From: a virus
Lineage: Duplodnaviria; Heunggongvirae; Uroviricota; Caudoviricetes
IMG/VR virus record: IMGVR_UViG_2534681765_000010
Direction: 5' to 3' (one strand)
Length of the DNA stretch: 18,993 nt
In this document: positions 10,396 to 18,993 of the stretch, piece by piece
Layout of the letters: each line of letters begins with the position of its first letter
How positions within the stretch are numbered: position 1 is the stretch's first letter
Notes under the pieces: generated by a model
What the model saw: the letters and a program-made list of their open reading frames with translations, nothing else
Database searches by the model: none
Told to the model about the DNA's origin: nothing
Made by a program: the position numbers and the translations under genes

Positions 10396-10509
10396 TCCAA
10401 ATCTGAATAATTAAATCCAGCACTGTAAATAAAATTTAATCCTTAACCGGAGGGATTTCTGCACCCTCAGAACATCAGGAGGCCGCCCGAAAGGGCGGTG
10501 GAGATAATA

Positions 10510-11034
10510 ATGGAAATAACTAAAGAACGATTATTGGAAATAGCAAATCTTAGTGAAAGGGCATTAAGTGATGGGAGGATTATTTCTCCTGATGCTTATG
10601 AATCAGTTACAAGTATAGAAATAATAACGATGGCCAGGATGCTTCTTGGTTGCCTCAAAAAAGAATATAAAAAAAAGGTGGATAGCAATGCTAATATATA
10701 TGATATTTTGGACAGTTGGGGGGCTTGGGCTGCAGCTGGAAATAGTTCTATCAACTGGCAGCAAGTGGCTGATAAATATAAAGATGTAGTACCTCATGGT
10801 AAGAAATTACGCCGTCAGTGTGGCAACGATGAAGGTCGTATGATTGATACCTGCATGTTGAAGCTTAAACAATATAGAATAGATGACTATGAGTTAATTA
10901 TCGCTCATTTTGTTATAGGTATATCTTTGCGTACAATAGCACGAAGGTACAAATGTTCAGATGGAACAATAAGAAAGAATATACAACTTACAATGGGAGT
11001 ATTGTTAGGATTGTCTTTTTATGTGCAATTATAG
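10510..11034 (+). CDS. Antiterminator Q-like protein (Q933-type fold suspected) with N-terminal extension; first gene of the AT-rich island
   Basis: ATG 10510 with ggag RBS; motifs LDSWGAWAAAG, RRQCGNDEGRMIDTCMLKLK and CSDGTIRKNIQ resemble the Stx-phage Q family as I recall it; AT-rich codon usage. Confidence 0.45.
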   Translation: MEITKERLLEIANLSERALSDGRIISPDAYESVTSIEIITMARMLLGCLKKEYKKKVDSNANIYDILDSWGAWAAAGNSSINWQQVADKYKDVVPHGKKLRRQCGNDEGRMIDTCMLKLKQYRIDDYELIIAHFVIGISLRTIARRYKCSDGTIRKNIQLTMGVLLGLSFYVQL

Positions 11035-11039
11035 ATATA

Positions 11040-11519
11040 TCACATGAGCCTTGTTATGTCCTTTAGACGCGACCAGGTAGTATAAAATTTTTTAAATGTA
11101 ATAAGCAGGAAAAAAATTCCCACTTGGAGTAATAGTTGGGCATATGTGTGCTCGTCGGCATCTTTTACTAGTGGGAATTTAAACTTTAGTGTATCAGGGA
11201 AAAATAATAAAATGATAAAAATAATACAAACTGATAGTAACCATCCCATAGTGGAGTGCATTTCTTCGGTCAGTTTTTTCAAATAACCAGTTTTTCCTAT
11301 ATTTCTAATTAGCGTATTATCTCTAGCTGAAGCAATCAAGGTAAGCGAACCTAAAACAAAGCCAAATAATATCCCAGAAAATGTAGAAACGGCCGAAGCG
11401 ATTGGCTGAATTTGTGCAAAATTTAGCTTTGCAGAAAGAGGCCATGCGATGATACAAAAAACAACAGAGGCTAAATTATAACCATAACTGTACAAAGTTA
11501 TCAATTTCCCCTTTTTCAT
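11040..11519 (-). CDS. Small integral membrane protein (159 aa, about 4 predicted TM helices); distal gene of a two-gene operon
   Basis: Four hydrophobic segments (LASVVFCIIAWPL; VSTFSGILFGFVLGSLTLIASA; MGWLLSVCIIFIILLFF; LLLQVGIFFLLITF); starts 16 nt downstream of the 304-aa gene; strongly AT-rich. Confidence 0.7.
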   Translation of the reverse strand: MKKGKLITLYSYGYNLASVVFCIIAWPLSAKLNFAQIQPIASAVSTFSGILFGFVLGSLTLIASARDNTLIRNIGKTGYLKKLTEEMHSTMGWLLSVCIIFIILLFFPDTLKFKFPLVKDADEHTYAQLLLQVGIFFLLITFKKFYTTWSRLKDITRLM

Positions 11520-11534
11520 ACCATCGCTCCAAAA

Positions 11535-12449
11535 TTAATCAACTCTTTGATTGGCTACTCCAAAGTATGCCTTCAATTCATCATCTTTACTATCTTTTGC
11601 AAGAGTTAAGGCGCTCCAAATGCTGCCAACTAATGGATACCTACCTCCAAGTTCAACATCTGTGTAGTAGACTAATTTGTCTGCTACAAGATCGATAGGA
11701 TGCTGTACACCGGTCTCAATGTCTTGGGTTTCTAGTTTAAGTTTTTCAACCTCAAAAGTCTCTAGTGTTTCTTTAAAGGCTCTTTTTAGTTGAGAACCTA
11801 GATAGCGAGATTCAGGATCTTCAGAACGACTATCCCCACGTAATGTAAGATTTACTTTGGCAGAATTAGTACCATTTAGAGTGGCTATCAATGCATTGTT
11901 GAAGTTATGTTCAACATCCTCATATAGTTGCACATTCTTTGGCCGAGCGATACCGATTTCTAGAGTTTTGATTCGAACTTCATTACGCATCAACCACTTT
12001 AAACTACTGGTCTGAATGATGGGATTAACAGTTGTATTTTGTGAACTGTTGGAAAGATATTTACTTAATAGCACCCAGCCATAACAGAGTCTGTTTCGTT
12101 GAATTATTAAAACTGAGTCTTGGGTATAAAAATGAAAATAAGCTTTTTCTAATAAGTTTTCATTGATTTCAAGTTTAATTTCTCTTTCTTCACCTCCGGC
12201 TACAGCAACATGAGGGAGATTATTGGTTCTGTGTTTTCCTATAACTCCCCTGAAACCATAGTCGGTTCTTTCCATGAAGCGCATTTCAACTAGTTTATTT
12301 CCTATTTTACGTACAGTTTTGTCTCGGCCTTCGCTGTATGACTCAAAAATTTTTGAAAAAACAGCTTCAGGTGAATTAACTCCTGCATTTGTATCAGTGC
12401 TTATAGTGTGACATTGATAAAAATCGAAGAAAAAGCGCTTGCTAGCCAT
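11535..12449 (-). CDS. Hypothetical 304-aa cytoplasmic protein; promoter-proximal gene of the two-gene operon (candidate sensor of an abortive-infection pair)
   Basis: Long uninterrupted ORF, AT-rich; no Walker A or other motif I recognise; preceded by a ~390-bp AT-rich promoter-like region (12450-12840). Confidence 0.7.
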   Translation of the reverse strand: MASKRFFFDFYQCHTISTDTNAGVNSPEAVFSKIFESYSEGRDKTVRKIGNKLVEMRFMERTDYGFRGVIGKHRTNNLPHVAVAGGEEREIKLEINENLLEKAYFHFYTQDSVLIIQRNRLCYGWVLLSKYLSNSSQNTTVNPIIQTSSLKWLMRNEVRIKTLEIGIARPKNVQLYEDVEHNFNNALIATLNGTNSAKVNLTLRGDSRSEDPESRYLGSQLKRAFKETLETFEVEKLKLETQDIETGVQHPIDLVADKLVYYTDVELGGRYPLVGSIWSALTLAKDSKDDELKAYFGVANQRVD

Positions 12450-12897
12450 TGCAAAAATTTCCTGTAAAAAATAATTACATACTTAAGATACTACAAAGAA
12501 TAATGCGTACGCAAAATTTTTTGTTGAGTAGAATATGTTCGCGGGGTATTTTTCGTTAAGATATAATTACCATGGTAACTTTTGCGTTGGTAATGCATTA
12601 TGTGGTGGAGAAAAAGAGAGAGTCTTATCTTTAAATTATCGCCAGCCTATATGACTATATGAGTAGTATTTAGATGGGAAATTGTTGAGTTATTGAAAGG
12701 AACCATAACCTTTATGTAAAATTACTGCGGGTGCTTGAGGTTATCTGTCTCAGGCATGCCACCAAAAGGCAGATAGAGAAAAGCCCCAGTTAACGTTACG
12801 CGTCCTGCAAGACGTTTAACATTAATCTGAGGCTCAATCTATGAACGGCAAATCTAGGTTAGCCTCTTACGTGCCGAAAGGCAAGGAGAAGCAGGCT

Positions 12898-13053
12898 ATG
12901 AAGCAGCAAAAGGCGATGTTAATCGCCCTGATCGTCATCTGTTTAACCGTCATAGTGACGGCACTGGTAACGAGGAAAGACCTCTGCGAGGTACGAATCC
13001 GAACCGGCCAGACGGAGGTCGCTGTCTTCACAGCTTACGAACCTGAGGAGTAA
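12898..13053 (+). CDS. hokD: Hok/Gef-family type I toxin (51 aa), HokD/RelF-like
   Basis: MKQQKAMLIALIVICLTVIVTALVTRKDLCEVRIRTGQTEVAVFTAYEPEE: single TM helix then the conserved RKxLCE..R....EVA.F.AYE Hok pattern; aaggag RBS 10 nt upstream. The track ORF start at 12841 is an in-frame extension that is probably not translated. Confidence 0.7.
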   Translation: MKQQKAMLIALIVICLTVIVTALVTRKDLCEVRIRTGQTEVAVFTAYEPEE

Positions 13054-14556: not shown

Positions 14557-14916
14557 ATGCTCATAGATTTGGTTTTACCTTACCCGCCGACGGTGAACAC
14601 TTACTGGCGACGCCGTGGCAGCACATATTTTATCTCGGAGGAGGGAAAGCGTTATCGCCGGGCTGTGGCGCTTATTGTTCGCCAGCAGCGGCTGAAATTA
14701 AACCTGTCCGGAAGGCTGGCGATAAAGGTGATTGCAGAGCCACCGGATAAACGTCGTCGTGACCTGGACAATATCCTGAAAGCACCACTGGATGCACTGA
14801 CACATGCGGGGTTGCTTATCGACGACGAGCAGTTTGATGAAATTAATATTGTGCGCGGTCAGCTTGTTCCTGGTGGGCGGTTGGGGATAAAAATCACAGA
14901 ACTGGAGTGCGCATGA
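14557..14916 (+). CDS. rusA: RusA Holliday-junction resolvase
   Basis: 119 aa; LPYPPTVNTYWRRRG ... DKRRRDLDNILKAPLDAL ... GGRLGIKITEL matches RusA motifs including the catalytic Asp cluster as I recall them. Confidence 0.85.
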   Translation: MLIDLVLPYPPTVNTYWRRRGSTYFISEEGKRYRRAVALIVRQQRLKLNLSGRLAIKVIAEPPDKRRRDLDNILKAPLDALTHAGLLIDDEQFDEINIVRGQLVPGGRLGIKITELECA

Positions 14917-15602
14917 ATAACCAGTATTTACAGTTTGTTCGTGAGCAACTCATGATTGCCACCGCCGATTTGAGTGGATCAACAAAAGGGCAGCTTGAAG
15001 CCTGGCAGGAGAATGCCATGTTCGATACAGGGCGTTACAGGCGAAAAAAAATCCGGTACCGCGATGAAGTGACTGGAAAAATGATAACGCGGGATAATCC
15101 ACCAATCCCGGGAAAGCAATCGCTGGCGAAAGGTTCATCAATTGCCCTGGTCAGTCCGGTTGAGTTTTCGACATCATCATGGCGACGCGCCGTTCTGTCT
15201 CTTGAAGAGCATCAGAAGGCGTGGGTGCTGTGGGTATACAGTGAAAATCCGAGTTGGGATTATCAGGTGGTCATTGCGAAATGGGCGTGGGATAAGTTTC
15301 AGGTGCATTTTGGCACCAGAAAAATTACAGGGAAAACGCTTGAGCGTCTGAAGAAATTAATCTGGCTGGCGGCGCAGGATGTCAGGGGGAGGATTACTGG
15401 GCGTGACGTCTACCAGCGACAGGAACTTGCCAGACTGTGTGGAGTTAAGCCTGACAACTGGAGCCATAATTATGCGAACTACTGGCGTGAGATGTGCGAC
15501 ATTTTTAAGAAACTCGATACAGAATCCTTGATTTGCACCGTGAAAATGAGATCGCAACAAAAAGCGACCTTTTCACGACGAGATATTGCAAAAGTCAATT
15601 AA
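14907..15602 (+). CDS. Late-gene antiterminator Q-like protein (QuuQ-type, assigned mainly by position after rusA)
   Basis: 231-aa ORF overlapping rusA by 10 nt and followed directly by a strong intrinsic terminator; the sequence itself is not one I can match confidently. Confidence 0.5.
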   Translation: MRMNNQYLQFVREQLMIATADLSGSTKGQLEAWQENAMFDTGRYRRKKIRYRDEVTGKMITRDNPPIPGKQSLAKGSSIALVSPVEFSTSSWRRAVLSLEEHQKAWVLWVYSENPSWDYQVVIAKWAWDKFQVHFGTRKITGKTLERLKKLIWLAAQDVRGRITGRDVYQRQELARLCGVKPDNWSHNYANYWREMCDIFKKLDTESLICTVKMRSQQKATFSRRDIAKVN

Positions 15603-15649
15603 ATCGCATACATTTTATGTAAATGTGATATTTTGCCGTATAGTGTGTA

Positions 15650-15674
15650 AACCCGCTTAAATGCGGGTTTTTTG
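15650..15674 (+). terminator. Rho-independent terminator (aacccgc-ttaaat-gcgggtt + tttttt) after the Q-like gene
   Basis: Perfect 7-bp stem with the same stem sequence as the hok terminator at 13122-13139, then a T-run; read directly. Confidence 0.75.
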
Positions 15675-15703
15675 CTTAACTCTGTGGACCTTTTTATCTG
15701 TAG

Positions 15704-15728
15704 TTGTAAGATATGGATATTCTTACAA
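15704..15728. promoter_or_regulatory. Perfect palindromic operator-like site ttgtaaga-N9-tcttacaa about 20 bp upstream of the kinase start
   Basis: 8-bp inverted repeat arms (15704-15711 / 15721-15728), read directly; sits between the upstream terminator and the kinase RBS. Confidence 0.55.
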
Positions 15729-15746
15729 TTTAGGTCGGTGAGCTTA

Positions 15747-16511
15747 ATGGAAGAACAGCACGGTAATTACTTTATAAAACGAATTCAGTTGATTGGAAGG
15801 GGTGCATTTGGCTTTGTTGAACACGTTAAGGTTTACAACCTCAACAAGGGTGAATGTGGGGATTATGCTAGAAAGGTTTTAGCCCCCGAAAAACCAGAGC
15901 TTTTGGCGCAAATAGAGCAGTTTAGAAGGCGTTTTAAAAGGGAGGTCGTGTATCAATCACATTGCGTACATAGCAATATTGTTCCTATTTATTTGTGCGA
16001 TTTGTTTGCCGAGAATCCATGGTTCATTATGGATAAAGCAGAATGTGATCTTGAGCACGAAATAACGAACAACCTTCTTACAACAGATCAAAAAATTTCA
16101 ATAGTGAAAATGGTATTAGATGGTGTAGCTCACATCCATGCGAAAGGCTATTTACACAGAGATATAAAACCATTTAATGTCTTGCGATTTAGCGACGGAA
16201 CATACAAGGTGTCTGATTTTGGTCTGGTAAAAGATACAAATCCCGAAGGGGATACCACTAAATTGACCGAGATCGGTACCCGTATGGGAAGTACAAGATA
16301 TATGGCTCCCGAGATTTTATATAATGCCGAGTATTCAGTTAAGACTGATGTTTATGCGGTGGGGCGGTTAATTGAGGACTTAAATTTAGATGATAAAAAA
16401 ATAAAGCCTATCATAGCGAAGTGTACCAGGATGGATAAAGATGATAGATATCAGACAATAGATGATGTGGCGTTTGATTTTGTGCATTCTTTTTTAAGGA
16501 GTGAGTCATGA
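15747..16511 (+). CDS. Hanks-type (eukaryotic-like) Ser/Thr protein kinase, catalytic domain only
   Basis: Gly-rich loop GRGAFGFV, AxK lysine (YARKVL), catalytic loop HRDIKPFN, DFG (SDFGLVKD), APE (YMAPEIL), DxxxxG (DVYAVGRL); ATG 15747 (track start 15672 is upstream in-frame and overlaps the terminator). Confidence 0.8.
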   Translation: MEEQHGNYFIKRIQLIGRGAFGFVEHVKVYNLNKGECGDYARKVLAPEKPELLAQIEQFRRRFKREVVYQSHCVHSNIVPIYLCDLFAENPWFIMDKAECDLEHEITNNLLTTDQKISIVKMVLDGVAHIHAKGYLHRDIKPFNVLRFSDGTYKVSDFGLVKDTNPEGDTTKLTEIGTRMGSTRYMAPEILYNAEYSVKTDVYAVGRLIEDLNLDDKKIKPIIAKCTRMDKDDRYQTIDDVAFDFVHSFLRSES

Positions 16512-17251
16512 TTCAGCTGATAGCGACTTCATCATTCTCGTATCCAAAAGAACCAGGTAGGGTCAACGAAGATTCATTGCTTCCTCCCAAAATTGTAGGG
16601 GATGGCATCTTATTTGCCGTAGCTGATGGTGTAGGTTCATACACTGGTGCCAGTCAGGCTTCATCAATGGCAATTGCTGAACTTTCAGCATTGACAAGCT
16701 TATCTTTTGACACAGTTCCGGATGTATTTGATGAAGTTAAGCGAAAGGTTATGTCGTTAGCTGATGTTAATGATGAGTTCGATAAAGCTGCTACTACACT
16801 TACGTTTTGTTATGTTTGTGATAGCGGAATTATTATTGGTCATATTGGTGATTGTCGTTTGTATTGCATTGGAGAGAAGAAAGCATACCAATTGACGAAG
16901 GACGATACCAGGCATCAGATGCTAATTGATCAGAATATTTTTAAACCCAGAGATTTGAAGGATAAACCGGGCAAAAATATCTTAACGACGGCTATAGCCT
17001 CAAATGTTGATATGGAATACGACTGTGATTTTATCACATGGAAAGATTTACCTAGTATTAACGGGGTATATCATCTGTGTATCATGTCTGATGGGGTTCA
17101 TAACGTTTGGGAAAAACGCCCCAGATTTACATCAAATACGATGAGTAATAGTCAGAAGTTTTCTAATGGCATTTTGCGTCGTATAGAGAGAGCCGGACCT
17201 GATGATGACTTTTCTTTAGTAAGTATAATGGTGCGTGTGACGTCAGATTAG
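16508..17251 (+). CDS. PP2C-like Ser/Thr protein phosphatase, translationally coupled to the kinase
   Basis: Start overlaps the kinase stop (ATGA); PP2C-like motifs FAVADGVGS, IGHIGDCRLYC (GDxR), LTKDD, MSDGVHN. Confidence 0.7.
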   Translation: MIQLIATSSFSYPKEPGRVNEDSLLPPKIVGDGILFAVADGVGSYTGASQASSMAIAELSALTSLSFDTVPDVFDEVKRKVMSLADVNDEFDKAATTLTFCYVCDSGIIIGHIGDCRLYCIGEKKAYQLTKDDTRHQMLIDQNIFKPRDLKDKPGKNILTTAIASNVDMEYDCDFITWKDLPSINGVYHLCIMSDGVHNVWEKRPRFTSNTMSNSQKFSNGILRRIERAGPDDDFSLVSIMVRVTSD

Positions 17252-17324
17252 TTGTATAAACTCAGTAGGGAATGCTAATTTCACATACAACATAGTTAAA
17301 GAAAACTTAATTTTAATGTAAAAA

Positions 17325-17347
17325 GGCTGCCCTCAGGCGGTCTTTTT
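17325..17347 (+). terminator. Rho-independent terminator (ggctgcc-ctca-ggcggtc + ttttt) after the phosphatase gene
   Basis: 7-bp stem with two G-U pairs, 4-nt loop, T-run 17343-17347. Confidence 0.55.
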
Positions 17348-17470
17348 ATGCTCGAAAATTGATGCAGTACGTTAAACGCGCTGGTGGTTGCGAATACCGG
17401 TCTTTCAGCTTGCTGGCTTTTTAGACAAGAGTTATTGGTATGTCACGTTAACCAGAAAAGGGAAAAAGAC

Positions 17471-17668
17471 ATGCTAAAACAGCAGGATATGACCGAAACC
17501 GCCAGAGTGGTGTTTAATGAATTAAGCGTCACCGAACCGGCGACCGTCGGGGAAATTGCGCAGAATACTTACCTTTCACGCGAACGCTGCCAGTTAATCC
17601 TGACCCAGCTTGTTATGGCGGGTCTGGCAGATTATCAGTTCGGTTGTTACAGACGCCTTCTGCAGTGA
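17471..17668 (+). CDS. Small winged-helix-like DNA-binding protein (65 aa)
   Basis: ATG 17471 after an aggg RBS-like stretch; ATVGEIAQNTYLSRERCQLILTQLVMAGL resembles a recognition helix-wing region. Confidence 0.45.
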   Translation: MLKQQDMTETARVVFNELSVTEPATVGEIAQNTYLSRERCQLILTQLVMAGLADYQFGCYRRLLQ

Positions 17669-17818
17669 AGGCTTTTTAATTTGTGGTAATGGGCGGCTGG
17701 TGGGTGTTAGCGGCACCTGCCAGCCATCTGCTCATGCGTTGGGGTCACAAGCAAACCTCAGGCCCATCTGCTTTGCGCAAAAGCAGTATGAGCCTATCAG
17801 AGAAGTGCTTATTGATCT

Positions 17819-18868
17819 ATGACTAATACTGTAAAAATATCCAGTTGTGAGTTGATCAACGCTGATTGCCTGAAATTTATCCAGACCTTACCGGAAAACT
17901 CTGTCGATCTGATAGTCACAGACCCGCCATACTTTAAAGTGAAGCCCGAGGGCTGGGATAACCAGTGGGAGGGCGACGATGATTACCTGAAATGGCTGGA
18001 CCAGTGTCTGGCGCAGTTCTGGCGGGTACTGAAGCCTGCCGGAAGTCTTTACCTGTTCTGTGGTCATCGCCTGGCATCTGACACCGAAATCATGATGCGT
18101 GAGCGCTTTAATGTGCTGAACCACATTATCTGGGCGAAGCCGTCCGGACGCTGGAACGGGTGCAATAAGGAAAGTCTGCGGGCGTATTTTCCGGCAACAG
18201 AGCGCATTCTGTTTGCAGAACATTATCAGGGACCGTATCGCCCGAAAGATGATGGCTATGTGGCACAGGGGCGCGAGCTAAAACAGCACGTCATGGCCCC
18301 GCTGATTTCTTACTTTCGTGATGCGCGTAAATCACTGGGAATAACGTCAAAACAGATAGCGGAAGCCACCGGAAAGAAAAACATGGCTTCGCACTGGTTT
18401 GGTACCAGTCAGTGGCAGTTACCGAACGAGGGTGATTACAACAAATTGCAGGCGTTGTTTGCGCGTGTTGCGGCAGAAAAACATCAGCGCGGGGAACTGG
18501 AAAAGCCACACCACCAGCTGGTCAGCACATACAGTGAGCTGAACCGGCAGTACACGGAACTGCTGAGTGAATATAAAAATTTGCGGCGGTATTTCGGTGT
18601 GACGGCGCAGGTTCCGTACACCGATGTCTGGACGCATAAACCGGTGCAGTACTATCCAGGAAAACATCCGTGCGAAAAACCGGCAGAAATGCTGCAGCAG
18701 ATAATCAACGCGAGCAGTCGTCCGGGAGACCTGGTTGCAGATTTTTTTATGGGTTCAGGTTCAACGGTAAAAGCGGCGATGGCACTGGGGCGTTGTGCGA
18801 TTGGTGTTGAGCTGGAGACAGGACGTTTTGAACAGACAGTCAGGGAAGTTCAGGATTTAATCGTTTGA
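17819..18868 (+). CDS. DNA methyltransferase, amino-MTase (N6-adenine or N4-cytosine) with DPPY motif IV preceding the C-terminal AdoMet-binding motif
   Basis: 349 aa; VTDPPYF catalytic motif near the N-terminus and FFMGSGST AdoMet-binding motif near the C-terminus; no cognate restriction endonuclease in the window. Confidence 0.85.
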   Translation: MTNTVKISSCELINADCLKFIQTLPENSVDLIVTDPPYFKVKPEGWDNQWEGDDDYLKWLDQCLAQFWRVLKPAGSLYLFCGHRLASDTEIMMRERFNVLNHIIWAKPSGRWNGCNKESLRAYFPATERILFAEHYQGPYRPKDDGYVAQGRELKQHVMAPLISYFRDARKSLGITSKQIAEATGKKNMASHWFGTSQWQLPNEGDYNKLQALFARVAAEKHQRGELEKPHHQLVSTYSELNRQYTELLSEYKNLRRYFGVTAQVPYTDVWTHKPVQYYPGKHPCEKPAEMLQQIINASSRPGDLVADFFMGSGSTVKAAMALGRCAIGVELETGRFEQTVREVQDLIV

Positions 18869-18917: not shown

Positions 18918-18993
18918 GGCCCTTTAGCTCAGTGGTGAGAGCGAGCGACTCATAATCGCCAGGTCGCTGGTTCAAATCCAGCAAGGGCCACCA
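18918..18993 (+). tRNA. tRNA with CAU anticodon, Ile2 (lysidine)-like by resemblance to E. coli ileX/ileY; Met cannot be excluded from the anticodon alone
   Basis: 76 nt ending CCA; acceptor stem ggccctt/aagggcc; D-arm gctc...gagc; anticodon loop ctCATaa; T-arm gctgg-ttcaaat-ccagc. Folded by eye. Confidence 0.85.

Follow-up and report, generated by a model that had tools for sequence, protein, structure and literature searches.

The cassette and its two genes

The stretch of DNA considered here (IMG/VR record IMGVR_UViG_2534681765_000010), called the window at its full length of 18,993 nucleotides, is a cryptic lambdoid (Qin/Rac-like) prophage of Escherichia coli. Behind its late antiterminator gene Q lie two genes, one for a Hanks-type Ser/Thr kinase and one for a PP2C-family Ser/Thr phosphatase; their positions and those of the neighbouring features are given in Table 1. 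Comparison with other prophages shows them to be a mobile two-gene moron, a self-contained cargo that occupies a late-region slot of variable content. As to the role of this cassette, anti-phage or toxin-antitoxin activity is the most plausible. More precisely, we give a probability of about 0.5 to its being a minimal phosphorylation-based toxin-antitoxin or abortive-infection module which, carried as a moron, would shield the lysogen and the prophage from other phages.

The kinase gene had been called by an open-reading-frame program from a TTG codon (15672-16511), but its true start is the ATG at 15747, which follows a GGTGAG sequence and is also the RefSeq start in identical strains. The 254-aa product consists of a kinase domain alone: a Pfam search returned Pkinase (2e-33) and PK_Tyr_Ser-Thr only, and the homologues, 241-284 aa long, match the same two entries. 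Invariant in an alignment of 22 family members are G17, G19 and G22 of the Gly loop, K43, E66, H137-R-D139-x-K141-xx-N144, D157-F-G159, P188-E189, D201 and R234. The features that define the Hanks-type Ser/Thr kinase superfamily, namely the Gly-rich loop, the VAIK Lys, the alpha-C Glu, HRDxKxxN, DFG, APE and the subdomain XI Arg, are all present, as an earlier note on this DNA, made from the letters alone, had stated. Outside Pfam, the kinase matches phrog_2361 (2e-98) and, within its kinase domain only, the PADLOC models mad6 (1e-39), PD-T4-6 (1e-34) and Stk2 (5e-28).

The 247-aa phosphatase is likewise one bare domain (PP2C_2, PF13672, 2e-14); among solved structures it aligns most closely to PstP and Stp1. 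The residues N20xD22, A39-D-G-x-G43, H112xGDxR117, T130xD132, M193-S-D-G196 and D233-D234 are invariant in the family alignment; the metal-binding Asp residues of motifs I/II, VIII and XI, together with GDxR, are those of the PP2C/PPM superfamily. The stop codon of the kinase gene and the start codon of the PP2C gene share four nucleotides (ATGA), which, with the intact metal-binding motifs, agrees with the earlier description of a translationally coupled PP2C-like partner.

Two peculiarities of the PP2C family may be mentioned. The 565-position phrog_5650 profile had raised the idea of a kinase-PP2C fusion; this was rejected, the 120 listed PP2C homologues all being single-domain proteins of 239-259 aa. 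In one locus (L235, 1353-2534), the PP2C open reading frame (ORF) is about 390 aa long and gives two overlapping matches to the family hidden Markov model (HMM), at positions 1-150 and 31-244, which suggests an internal partial duplication; the kinase upstream of it aligns just to HMM position 190.

Conservation of the pair

Both proteins belong to compact families of single-domain proteins of about 250 aa, found in Enterobacterales, Pasteurellaceae, Vibrio, Aeromonas, Pseudomonas, Xanthomonas and Acinetobacter; for the PP2C family, only 19 clusters (at 50% identity) reach E<=1e-30. The earlier note had called for an HMM search of both proteins and for a survey of the neighbourhood of the pair. 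The former returned the Pfam matches given above; the latter found the kinase gene immediately upstream of the PP2C gene, on the same strand, in 80 of the 80 IMG/VR loci anchored on PP2C. Reciprocally, the PP2C gene comes next in all loci anchored on kinases of the family (62/62), and generic viral kinases go without it. Adjacency was also found in nine gene look-ups out of nine, as well as in the phages Flotzy and phiES15. The stop codon of the kinase gene runs into the PP2C start codon in 72 of the 80 distinct intact cassettes (as ATGA in 55), and the gap between the two genes never exceeds 16 nt. Moreover, the pairwise distances between kinases and between phosphatases are correlated (r=0.91, Mantel p=0.001). 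All this points to an obligate, co-evolving pair. A scan of genome contigs started from the kinase alignment used generic HRD and DFG patterns, and all but one of its 80 loci were unrelated Hanks kinases.

The ratios of non-synonymous to synonymous substitution rates (dN/dS), from 0.03 to 0.12, indicate strong purifying selection on the two genes, although the copy in the window lies in a decayed prophage; they range from 0.03 to 0.04 for the kinase and from 0.09 to 0.12 for PP2C. At the protein level PP2C changes about three times faster than the kinase, with dN values of 0.019 versus 0.005 when the window is compared with the related E. coli prophage L004, and of 0.098 versus 0.030 when it is compared with L100. 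This difference would fit a phosphatase that acts as the partner of phage triggers.

Carriage is rare: 50 out of 5426 complete E. coli genomes have the cassette, always in a prophage context, as one of two alleles showing at least 99% and about 96% identity to the window. Several genomes of the enterotoxigenic E. coli (ETEC) type share region 15600-17400 with 100% identity, and strain E24377A does so with 99.9%; in the latter, RefSeq labels the three genes of the locus Q, 'serine/threonine-protein kinase' and 'PP2C family phosphatase'. A megablast search of 50,697 phage records with the cassette as query gave no match, its relatives being found at the protein level only (Flotzy, phiES15).

These data bear on whether the pair could be an ordinary housekeeping eSTK/eSTP couple of the PknB/PstP, Stk1/Stp1 or PrkC/PrpC type, or a virulence conversion factor, that resides in a prophage. 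The nearest NCBIfam models are indeed those of the Stk1 PASTA kinase and of the Stp1/IreP phosphatase, and the closest solved structures are Staphylococcus aureus PknB and Mycobacterium tuberculosis PstP. However, the scores fall far below the family cut-offs (104.4 bits versus 450 for the kinase, 93.5 versus 230 for the phosphatase), the kinase has no transmembrane region and no room for PASTA domains, and neither a secretion signal nor effector features were noted. Domain content, NCBIfam scores and rare, exclusively prophage-borne carriage in E. coli largely refute this explanation, which has very little chance of being right.

Borders of the cassette and the post-Q slot

Comparison with 'empty' prophages places the inserted segment at about 15641-17336. 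On the left side, kinase-less prophages with the same Q family diverge from the window at 15636-15641, and L096 and L095 were also compared with it by eye; on the right side, cassette-less prophages regain homology at 17336-17343. The empty site is illustrated by strain 2014C-3011 (L096), in which about 60 nt and a single strong hairpin with a T-run separate Q from the small ORF and methylase gene that the window also has. Other prophages use the site for something else: two unrelated hypothetical ORFs of 75 and 265 aa, lying between terminator hairpins, in L095 (4176-5207), and an ompC-like porin gene on the opposite strand in L005 (2587-3684). Because its content differs from one prophage to another, the post-Q site is a genuine variable cargo slot, located just past the late promoter region. 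Present or absent between homologous backbones, and provided with a terminator of its own, the cassette has these attributes of a phage moron, and the notion of a self-contained cargo set between the Q-like gene and the tRNA/methylase region stands. The likeness to the cargo location of Shiga toxin (Stx) phages, which the earlier note had drawn, is only approximate: the cassette is near the stx position but upstream of the tRNA genes, whereas the stx site is downstream of them. This order is apparent in prophage L004, where the cassette precedes Ile/Arg/Arg tRNA genes and a nanS-type esterase gene.

The two intrinsic terminators said to flank the pair are both there, with predicted folding energies of -13.5 kcal/mol (z -3.9) for terminator 1 and -18.3 kcal/mol (z -4.8) for terminator 2. 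They have different origins. Terminator 2 is homologous to the sole hairpin found after Q in L096, and is therefore the ancestral tR'-type terminator of the backbone. Terminator 1 accompanies the cassette in Cronobacter, where the sequence on its 5' side has diverged; this indicates that it arrived with the insert. What is not supported is the insulation that the two terminators had been thought to provide, since the second one is the backbone tR' homologue; on the lambdoid analogy that follows, the terminators would be a generic trait of the slot rather than a special insulating device. In lambdoid phages, the late transcripts started at pR' stop at the tR' terminator unless Q is present. By analogy, transcripts from the late promoter of the window should stop at terminator 1 without Q, and run through the cassette with it: since terminator 1 now acts as the first terminator of the late promoter, antitermination by Q should allow read-through of the whole cassette.

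The leader of the kinase gene

The 76-nt leader of the kinase gene (15671-15746) contains an inverted repeat that had been described as a perfect palindromic operator. Its arms (15704-15711 and 15721-15728) are only 8 nt each, and the 9-nt spacer is not palindromic. As RNA, the repeat is predicted to fold into a longer, 13-pair hairpin (15698-15734), which ends 13 nt 5' of the kinase start codon and whose energy (-10.6 kcal/mol, z -3.7) is matched by 1 of 200 shuffled sequences. The Cronobacter cassette has a degenerate form of the repeat and the Raoultella one none, and more distant cassettes hold unrelated repeats. In the 96% allele of E. coli both arms are altered at a paired position (G:C to T.G), a change which breaks the dyad symmetry of the DNA yet keeps a wobble pair in the RNA. 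With no conservation beyond close relatives, and no DNA-binding or repressor gene within the cassette, a repressor operator was rejected; a hairpin acting in the 5' untranslated region of the mRNA is the better guess. No RNA family of Rfam was found in 15400-17800.

A search of the leader for sigma-70 promoters gave no match of at least 9/12, the best candidates found by eye being at about 7-8/12. The independent regulation that the earlier note had attributed to the cassette is thus not borne out, there being neither such a promoter in the leader nor a DNA-binding gene within the cassette. Transcription probably results from low-level read-through or from a weak promoter of the leader in the lysogen, to which Q-dependent late transcription would be added after induction.

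Genomic contexts

The cassette lies directly 3' of Q genes from three unrelated families: PF06323 in E. coli and Cronobacter, PF03589 in Yersinia and PF06530 in Raoultella. In phage Flotzy and in Enterobacter prophages it is found between the lysis and terminase genes. Such positions are what one would expect if the pair were a late lytic-cycle module under Q control, which retunes host or phage phosphorylation during virion production or the timing of lysis, or excludes superinfecting phages in lytic growth only, with PP2C limiting the collateral damage. In the post-Q contexts the cassette is downstream of the late promoter and upstream of the lysis genes; its orientation is nearly always that of the late genes; and the lack of a consensus promoter, together with terminator 1, which would block expression unless Q is present, goes in the same direction. 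However, morons are normally co-oriented with the late genes whatever their function, and other contexts do not suit a lytic role. Some copies lie in early or immunity regions, close to S24 repressors, N and SieB or, in Haemophilus, to RecT/SSB; in Vibrio the cassette is next to a PM2-like element. Outside prophages it occurs in Xanthomonas, beside a NACHT-STAND gene and SymE, and in an island of Pseudomonas putida, beside transposases and PNP_UDP_1. Finally, purifying selection persists in a prophage that has lost most of its structural genes. For these reasons we regard a Q-dependent late-lytic function as unlikely, although it is the main rival of the defence reading.

The same contexts are relevant to a role in counter-defence, in which the kinase would inactivate host defence proteins, or PP2C would erase the marks left by defence kinases such as Stk2, PD-T4-6 and KKP (see below), or both. 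Kinases of T7-like phages are reported to inactivate host defence proteins by phosphorylation. The pair is phage-borne, a PP2C is the logical antidote to kinase-based immunity, and the threefold faster change of PP2C could reflect such a use. Against this, anti-defence genes are normally early, and the cassette sits behind Q and a terminator; it is also present in non-phage islands beside defence-type genes; and the strict 1:1 coupling and co-divergence of the two genes point to an internally balanced pair. Counter-defence is, on this evidence, quite improbable.

Comparison with named systems

KKP, which is made of the kinases PfkA and PfkB and of the PP2C PfpC, is found in the Pseudomonas Pf6 and P2/P4/Mu-like prophages (Guo et al. 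2024, PMC11341870). Its two Hanks kinases are jointly toxic, neither being so alone, and its PF13672 PP2C is the antitoxin, in a type VII-like toxin-antitoxin arrangement; inhibition of the PfpC phosphatase by the T4 protein Gp59 is the trigger and results in an abortive-type defence (PMC11341870). Like KKP, the cassette combines in one operon a Hanks kinase and a PF13672 PP2C, is prophage-borne and has spread widely by horizontal transfer in Gram-negative bacteria. As compared by published architecture, it differs from KKP in several respects. There is one kinase gene, here and in all related loci examined, instead of two adjacent ones; the kinase has no C-terminal domain, whereas PfkA carries a CSD (PF00313) and PfkB an FHA domain (PF00498); the phosphatase is nothing more than a PP2C domain of 247 aa; and the carriers are lambdoid in place of the Pf, P2/P4 and Mu-like elements.

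KKP has a second function, the control of prophage induction via MvaU (PMC11341870). This precedent favours a regulator of lysogeny or host physiology, in which the relative activities of kinase and phosphatase would decide how far a nucleoid or regulatory protein of the host is phosphorylated, and would thereby tune induction or host traits, with or without defence. A reversible pair is well suited to a tunable switch, and host strains often hold several prophages, with multiple related regions per genome. Yet no target or regulatory link is visible in the sequence, and the kinase has neither the CSD nor the FHA domain required in KKP. Furthermore, a host-specific regulatory target is argued against by the movement of the cassette among very different phages and hosts, from Vibrio to Xanthomonas. 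We consider such a regulator distinctly unlikely.

PD-T4-6, an anti-phage Ser/Thr kinase of E. coli, is a one-gene system that suffices by itself for defence; its ORF of 436 aa ends in an extension of about 150 aa and was cloned without a phosphatase (Vassallo et al. 2022, PMC9519451). Its HMMs match the kinase of the window with E-values down to 1e-34, but only over profile positions ~11-201, and the 254-aa kinase is always paired with a PP2C. Two IMG/VR loci, L246 (894-2956) and L247 (1545-3565), encode longer kinases (about 440-450 aa), in which the C-terminal 200 aa or so form an extension without any Pfam match; PP2C follows in both. A link of these proteins to full-length PD-T4-6, suggested by their similar length, was not shown, their PADLOC matches being confined to the kinase core.

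The Stk kinases of phages 933W and phi24B, and the staphylococcal Stk2, exclude or abort other phages, and 933W Stk is, like the kinase of the window, prophage-encoded in E. coli. The resemblance stops there: identity with the 933W-type stk product is 25.7% over 68% of the query (E 5e-7), and stk lies in the immunity region without a phosphatase partner, while Stk2 is host-encoded and its 500-position PADLOC model is matched over the kinase core only. Other defence systems also include a Hanks kinase. The TerY-P triad reportedly consists of the vWA protein TerY, a PP2C and a Ser/Thr kinase; no vWA/TerY gene accompanies the pair in any of the contexts examined. MADS has the mad6 kinase, but the kinase of the window scores 66.7 bits with the NCBIfam model antiphage_MADS6, for a cut-off of 460, and its PADLOC match to mad6 spans 51-243 of 659 positions. 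The mad6 match had also led us to consider a MADS-like functional link with the neighbouring methylase; this was discarded, the methylase and the cassette each occurring without the other.

The cassette is therefore outside every named family considered, and to that extent the earlier statement that it could not be placed in any named defence system stands: the pair fails the architecture or score tests of all of them. The statement is to be tempered by the KKP precedent of 2024 and by the matches of the kinase to the PD-T4-6, mad6 and Stk2 HMMs; that a phosphatase can restrain a kinase is already known from KKP. The pair is not mentioned by DefensePredictor nor in the E. coli defence-island survey.

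A candidate phosphorylation-based immune module

The cassette is probably a relative of the published kinase/phosphatase toxin-antitoxin modules active in phage defence, and not a wholly new kind of system. Counting for the defence reading are the intact catalytic motifs, the obligate pairing and co-divergence of the two genes, the purifying selection, the several different accessory slots occupied, the matches of the kinase domain to defence models and the KKP precedent. Toxicity, trigger, targets and expression pattern are what we infer in the following scheme. Since it has 254 aa and no sensor or targeting domain, the kinase would be a promiscuous, potentially toxic effector. PP2C, co-translated from the shared mRNA, would continuously reverse the autophosphorylation of the kinase and the phosphorylation of its substrates, and so keep the system off. 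An infecting phage would upset the balance, either because the phosphatase is inhibited or titrated, as PfpC is by T4 Gp59 in KKP, or because the kinase is activated; the ensuing burst of phosphorylation on essential host or phage proteins would abort the infection. In this scheme PP2C is the brake, and probably the sensor too. A more specific proposal is somewhat less likely than not: the cassette would be the founding example of a minimal two-gene 'KP' immune or toxin-antitoxin system, distinct from KKP, PD-T4-6 and Stk2, with PP2C as the phage sensor. Such a system would be carried in accessory slots of temperate phages across Gammaproteobacteria, and in about 1% of the complete E. coli genomes.

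Natural disruptions of the cassette provide a further indication. In E. coli, the kinase gene is truncated with PP2C left intact by a 1-nt deletion in five strains and by a 10-nt deletion in one; yet another strain has both genes, as well as Q, interrupted by IS1 and IS3 (among the disrupted examples are L183, strain 118UI; L184, strain 510016; and L185, strain SY033). Kinase-only truncations are also found in IMG/VR (L170/171, L175, L181, which is the same as L214, and L245). Altogether, kinase-only inactivation amounts to about six independent events, against a PP2C-only frameshift in a single case (L240). An asymmetry in this direction is what is predicted for a toxic kinase and an antidote PP2C, and hints at such a relationship.

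Several points weigh against the toxin-antitoxin and defence interpretation. The asymmetry comes from few events, partly kin by descent, with L240 as a counter-example, and some of the disruptions could be sequencing errors. The PADLOC matches of the kinase cover the generic kinase domain only, and no significant PADLOC model was found for PP2C. The leader offers no convincing sigma-70 promoter for expression in the lysogen. In most contexts the cassette is co-oriented within a Q-dependent late operon, an arrangement that fits a lytic-cycle role equally well, and variable phage slots are compatible with any moron function. Lastly, a literature search found no published work on this kinase-PP2C pair.

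Surroundings of the cassette in the prophage

The features of the locus are listed in Table 1. Beyond terminator 2, the small backbone ORF is also found in the cassette-less L005, L095 and L096. The tRNA gene at the end of the window was called tRNA-Met by ARAGORN and is labelled tRNA-Ile in RefSeq; it is presumably of the lysidine-modified ileX type, common among Stx-like phages.

Table 1. Features at and around the kinase-PP2C cassette (positions in the window)
Feature	Position	Strand	Basis and remarks
Late antiterminator gene Q (backbone, outside the cassette)	14907-15602	+	Pfam Phage_antiter_Q PF06323, 5e-84; RefSeq start 14913
Backbone stretch 3' of Q, ending at the left cassette junction; probably pR' late promoter and initial transcribed region	15603-15641	+	Comparison with kinase-less prophages sharing the Q family; likeness to lambdoid pR'
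Intrinsic terminator 1, cassette-borne	15649-15676 (hairpin 15649-15670, then T-run)	+	Terminator scan, RNA fold
Leader inverted repeat / RNA hairpin	15698-15734	+	Inverted-repeat search, RNA fold
Hanks-type Ser/Thr kinase gene, 254 aa	15747-16511	+	Pfam Pkinase, 2e-33
PP2C-family Ser/Thr phosphatase gene, 247 aa	16508-17251	+	Pfam PP2C_2, 2e-14
Intrinsic terminator 2, right junction	17319-17352 (hairpin 17319-17348)	+	Fold, homology to cassette-less prophages
Small conserved backbone ORF, outside the cassette	17471-17668	+	phrog_331, 2e-43
Third terminator-like hairpin, 3' of the small ORF	17655-17672	+	Terminator scan
Phage DNA N6/N4 methyltransferase gene (backbone)	17819-18868	+	N6_N4_Mtase, 2e-44
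tRNA(CAT)	18918-18993		ARAGORN

The window has a second, unrelated Q-like antiterminator gene (PF06530) at 10498-11034. Behind it is a convergent pair of genes on the minus strand, a 159-aa ORF (11040-11519) without Pfam match and a gene for a DUF6731 protein (11535-12449); PADLOC gave no match for either. Region 10498-12449 resembles a further post-Q cargo slot, and suggests a mosaic prophage in which two late-regulatory regions are combined. Colinearity of the window with E24377A (L001) and with strain 503025 (L187) is lost upstream of about 13 kb, and in strain E1739 some 150 kb separate block 10400-12900 from the kinase cassette. This loss of colinearity despite 99.9-100% identity in the cassette region, together with the separation of the modules in E1739, indicates that the source prophage is a recombinant of modules from different prophages. 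In E24377A the prophage (L001, 1469-31432) is inserted between potC and potB, where it interrupts the potABCD spermidine/putrescine transporter operon, and most of its head and tail genes are gone.

Implications

Since KKP, Stk2 and PD-T4-6 have already established the general concept, the gain would be incremental and not paradigm-changing. If the proposed function is true, one bare kinase and one bare phosphatase would make the simplest known phosphorylation-based anti-phage switch, and a tractable model for how phages trigger kinase-based immunity and for which phosphorylation targets halt an infection. The pair would add an unannotated defence candidate to the prophages of ETEC, enteroaggregative E. 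coli (EAEC) and avian pathogenic E. coli (APEC), and the post-Q slot, which Stx phages use for toxins, would then also hold immunity cargo.

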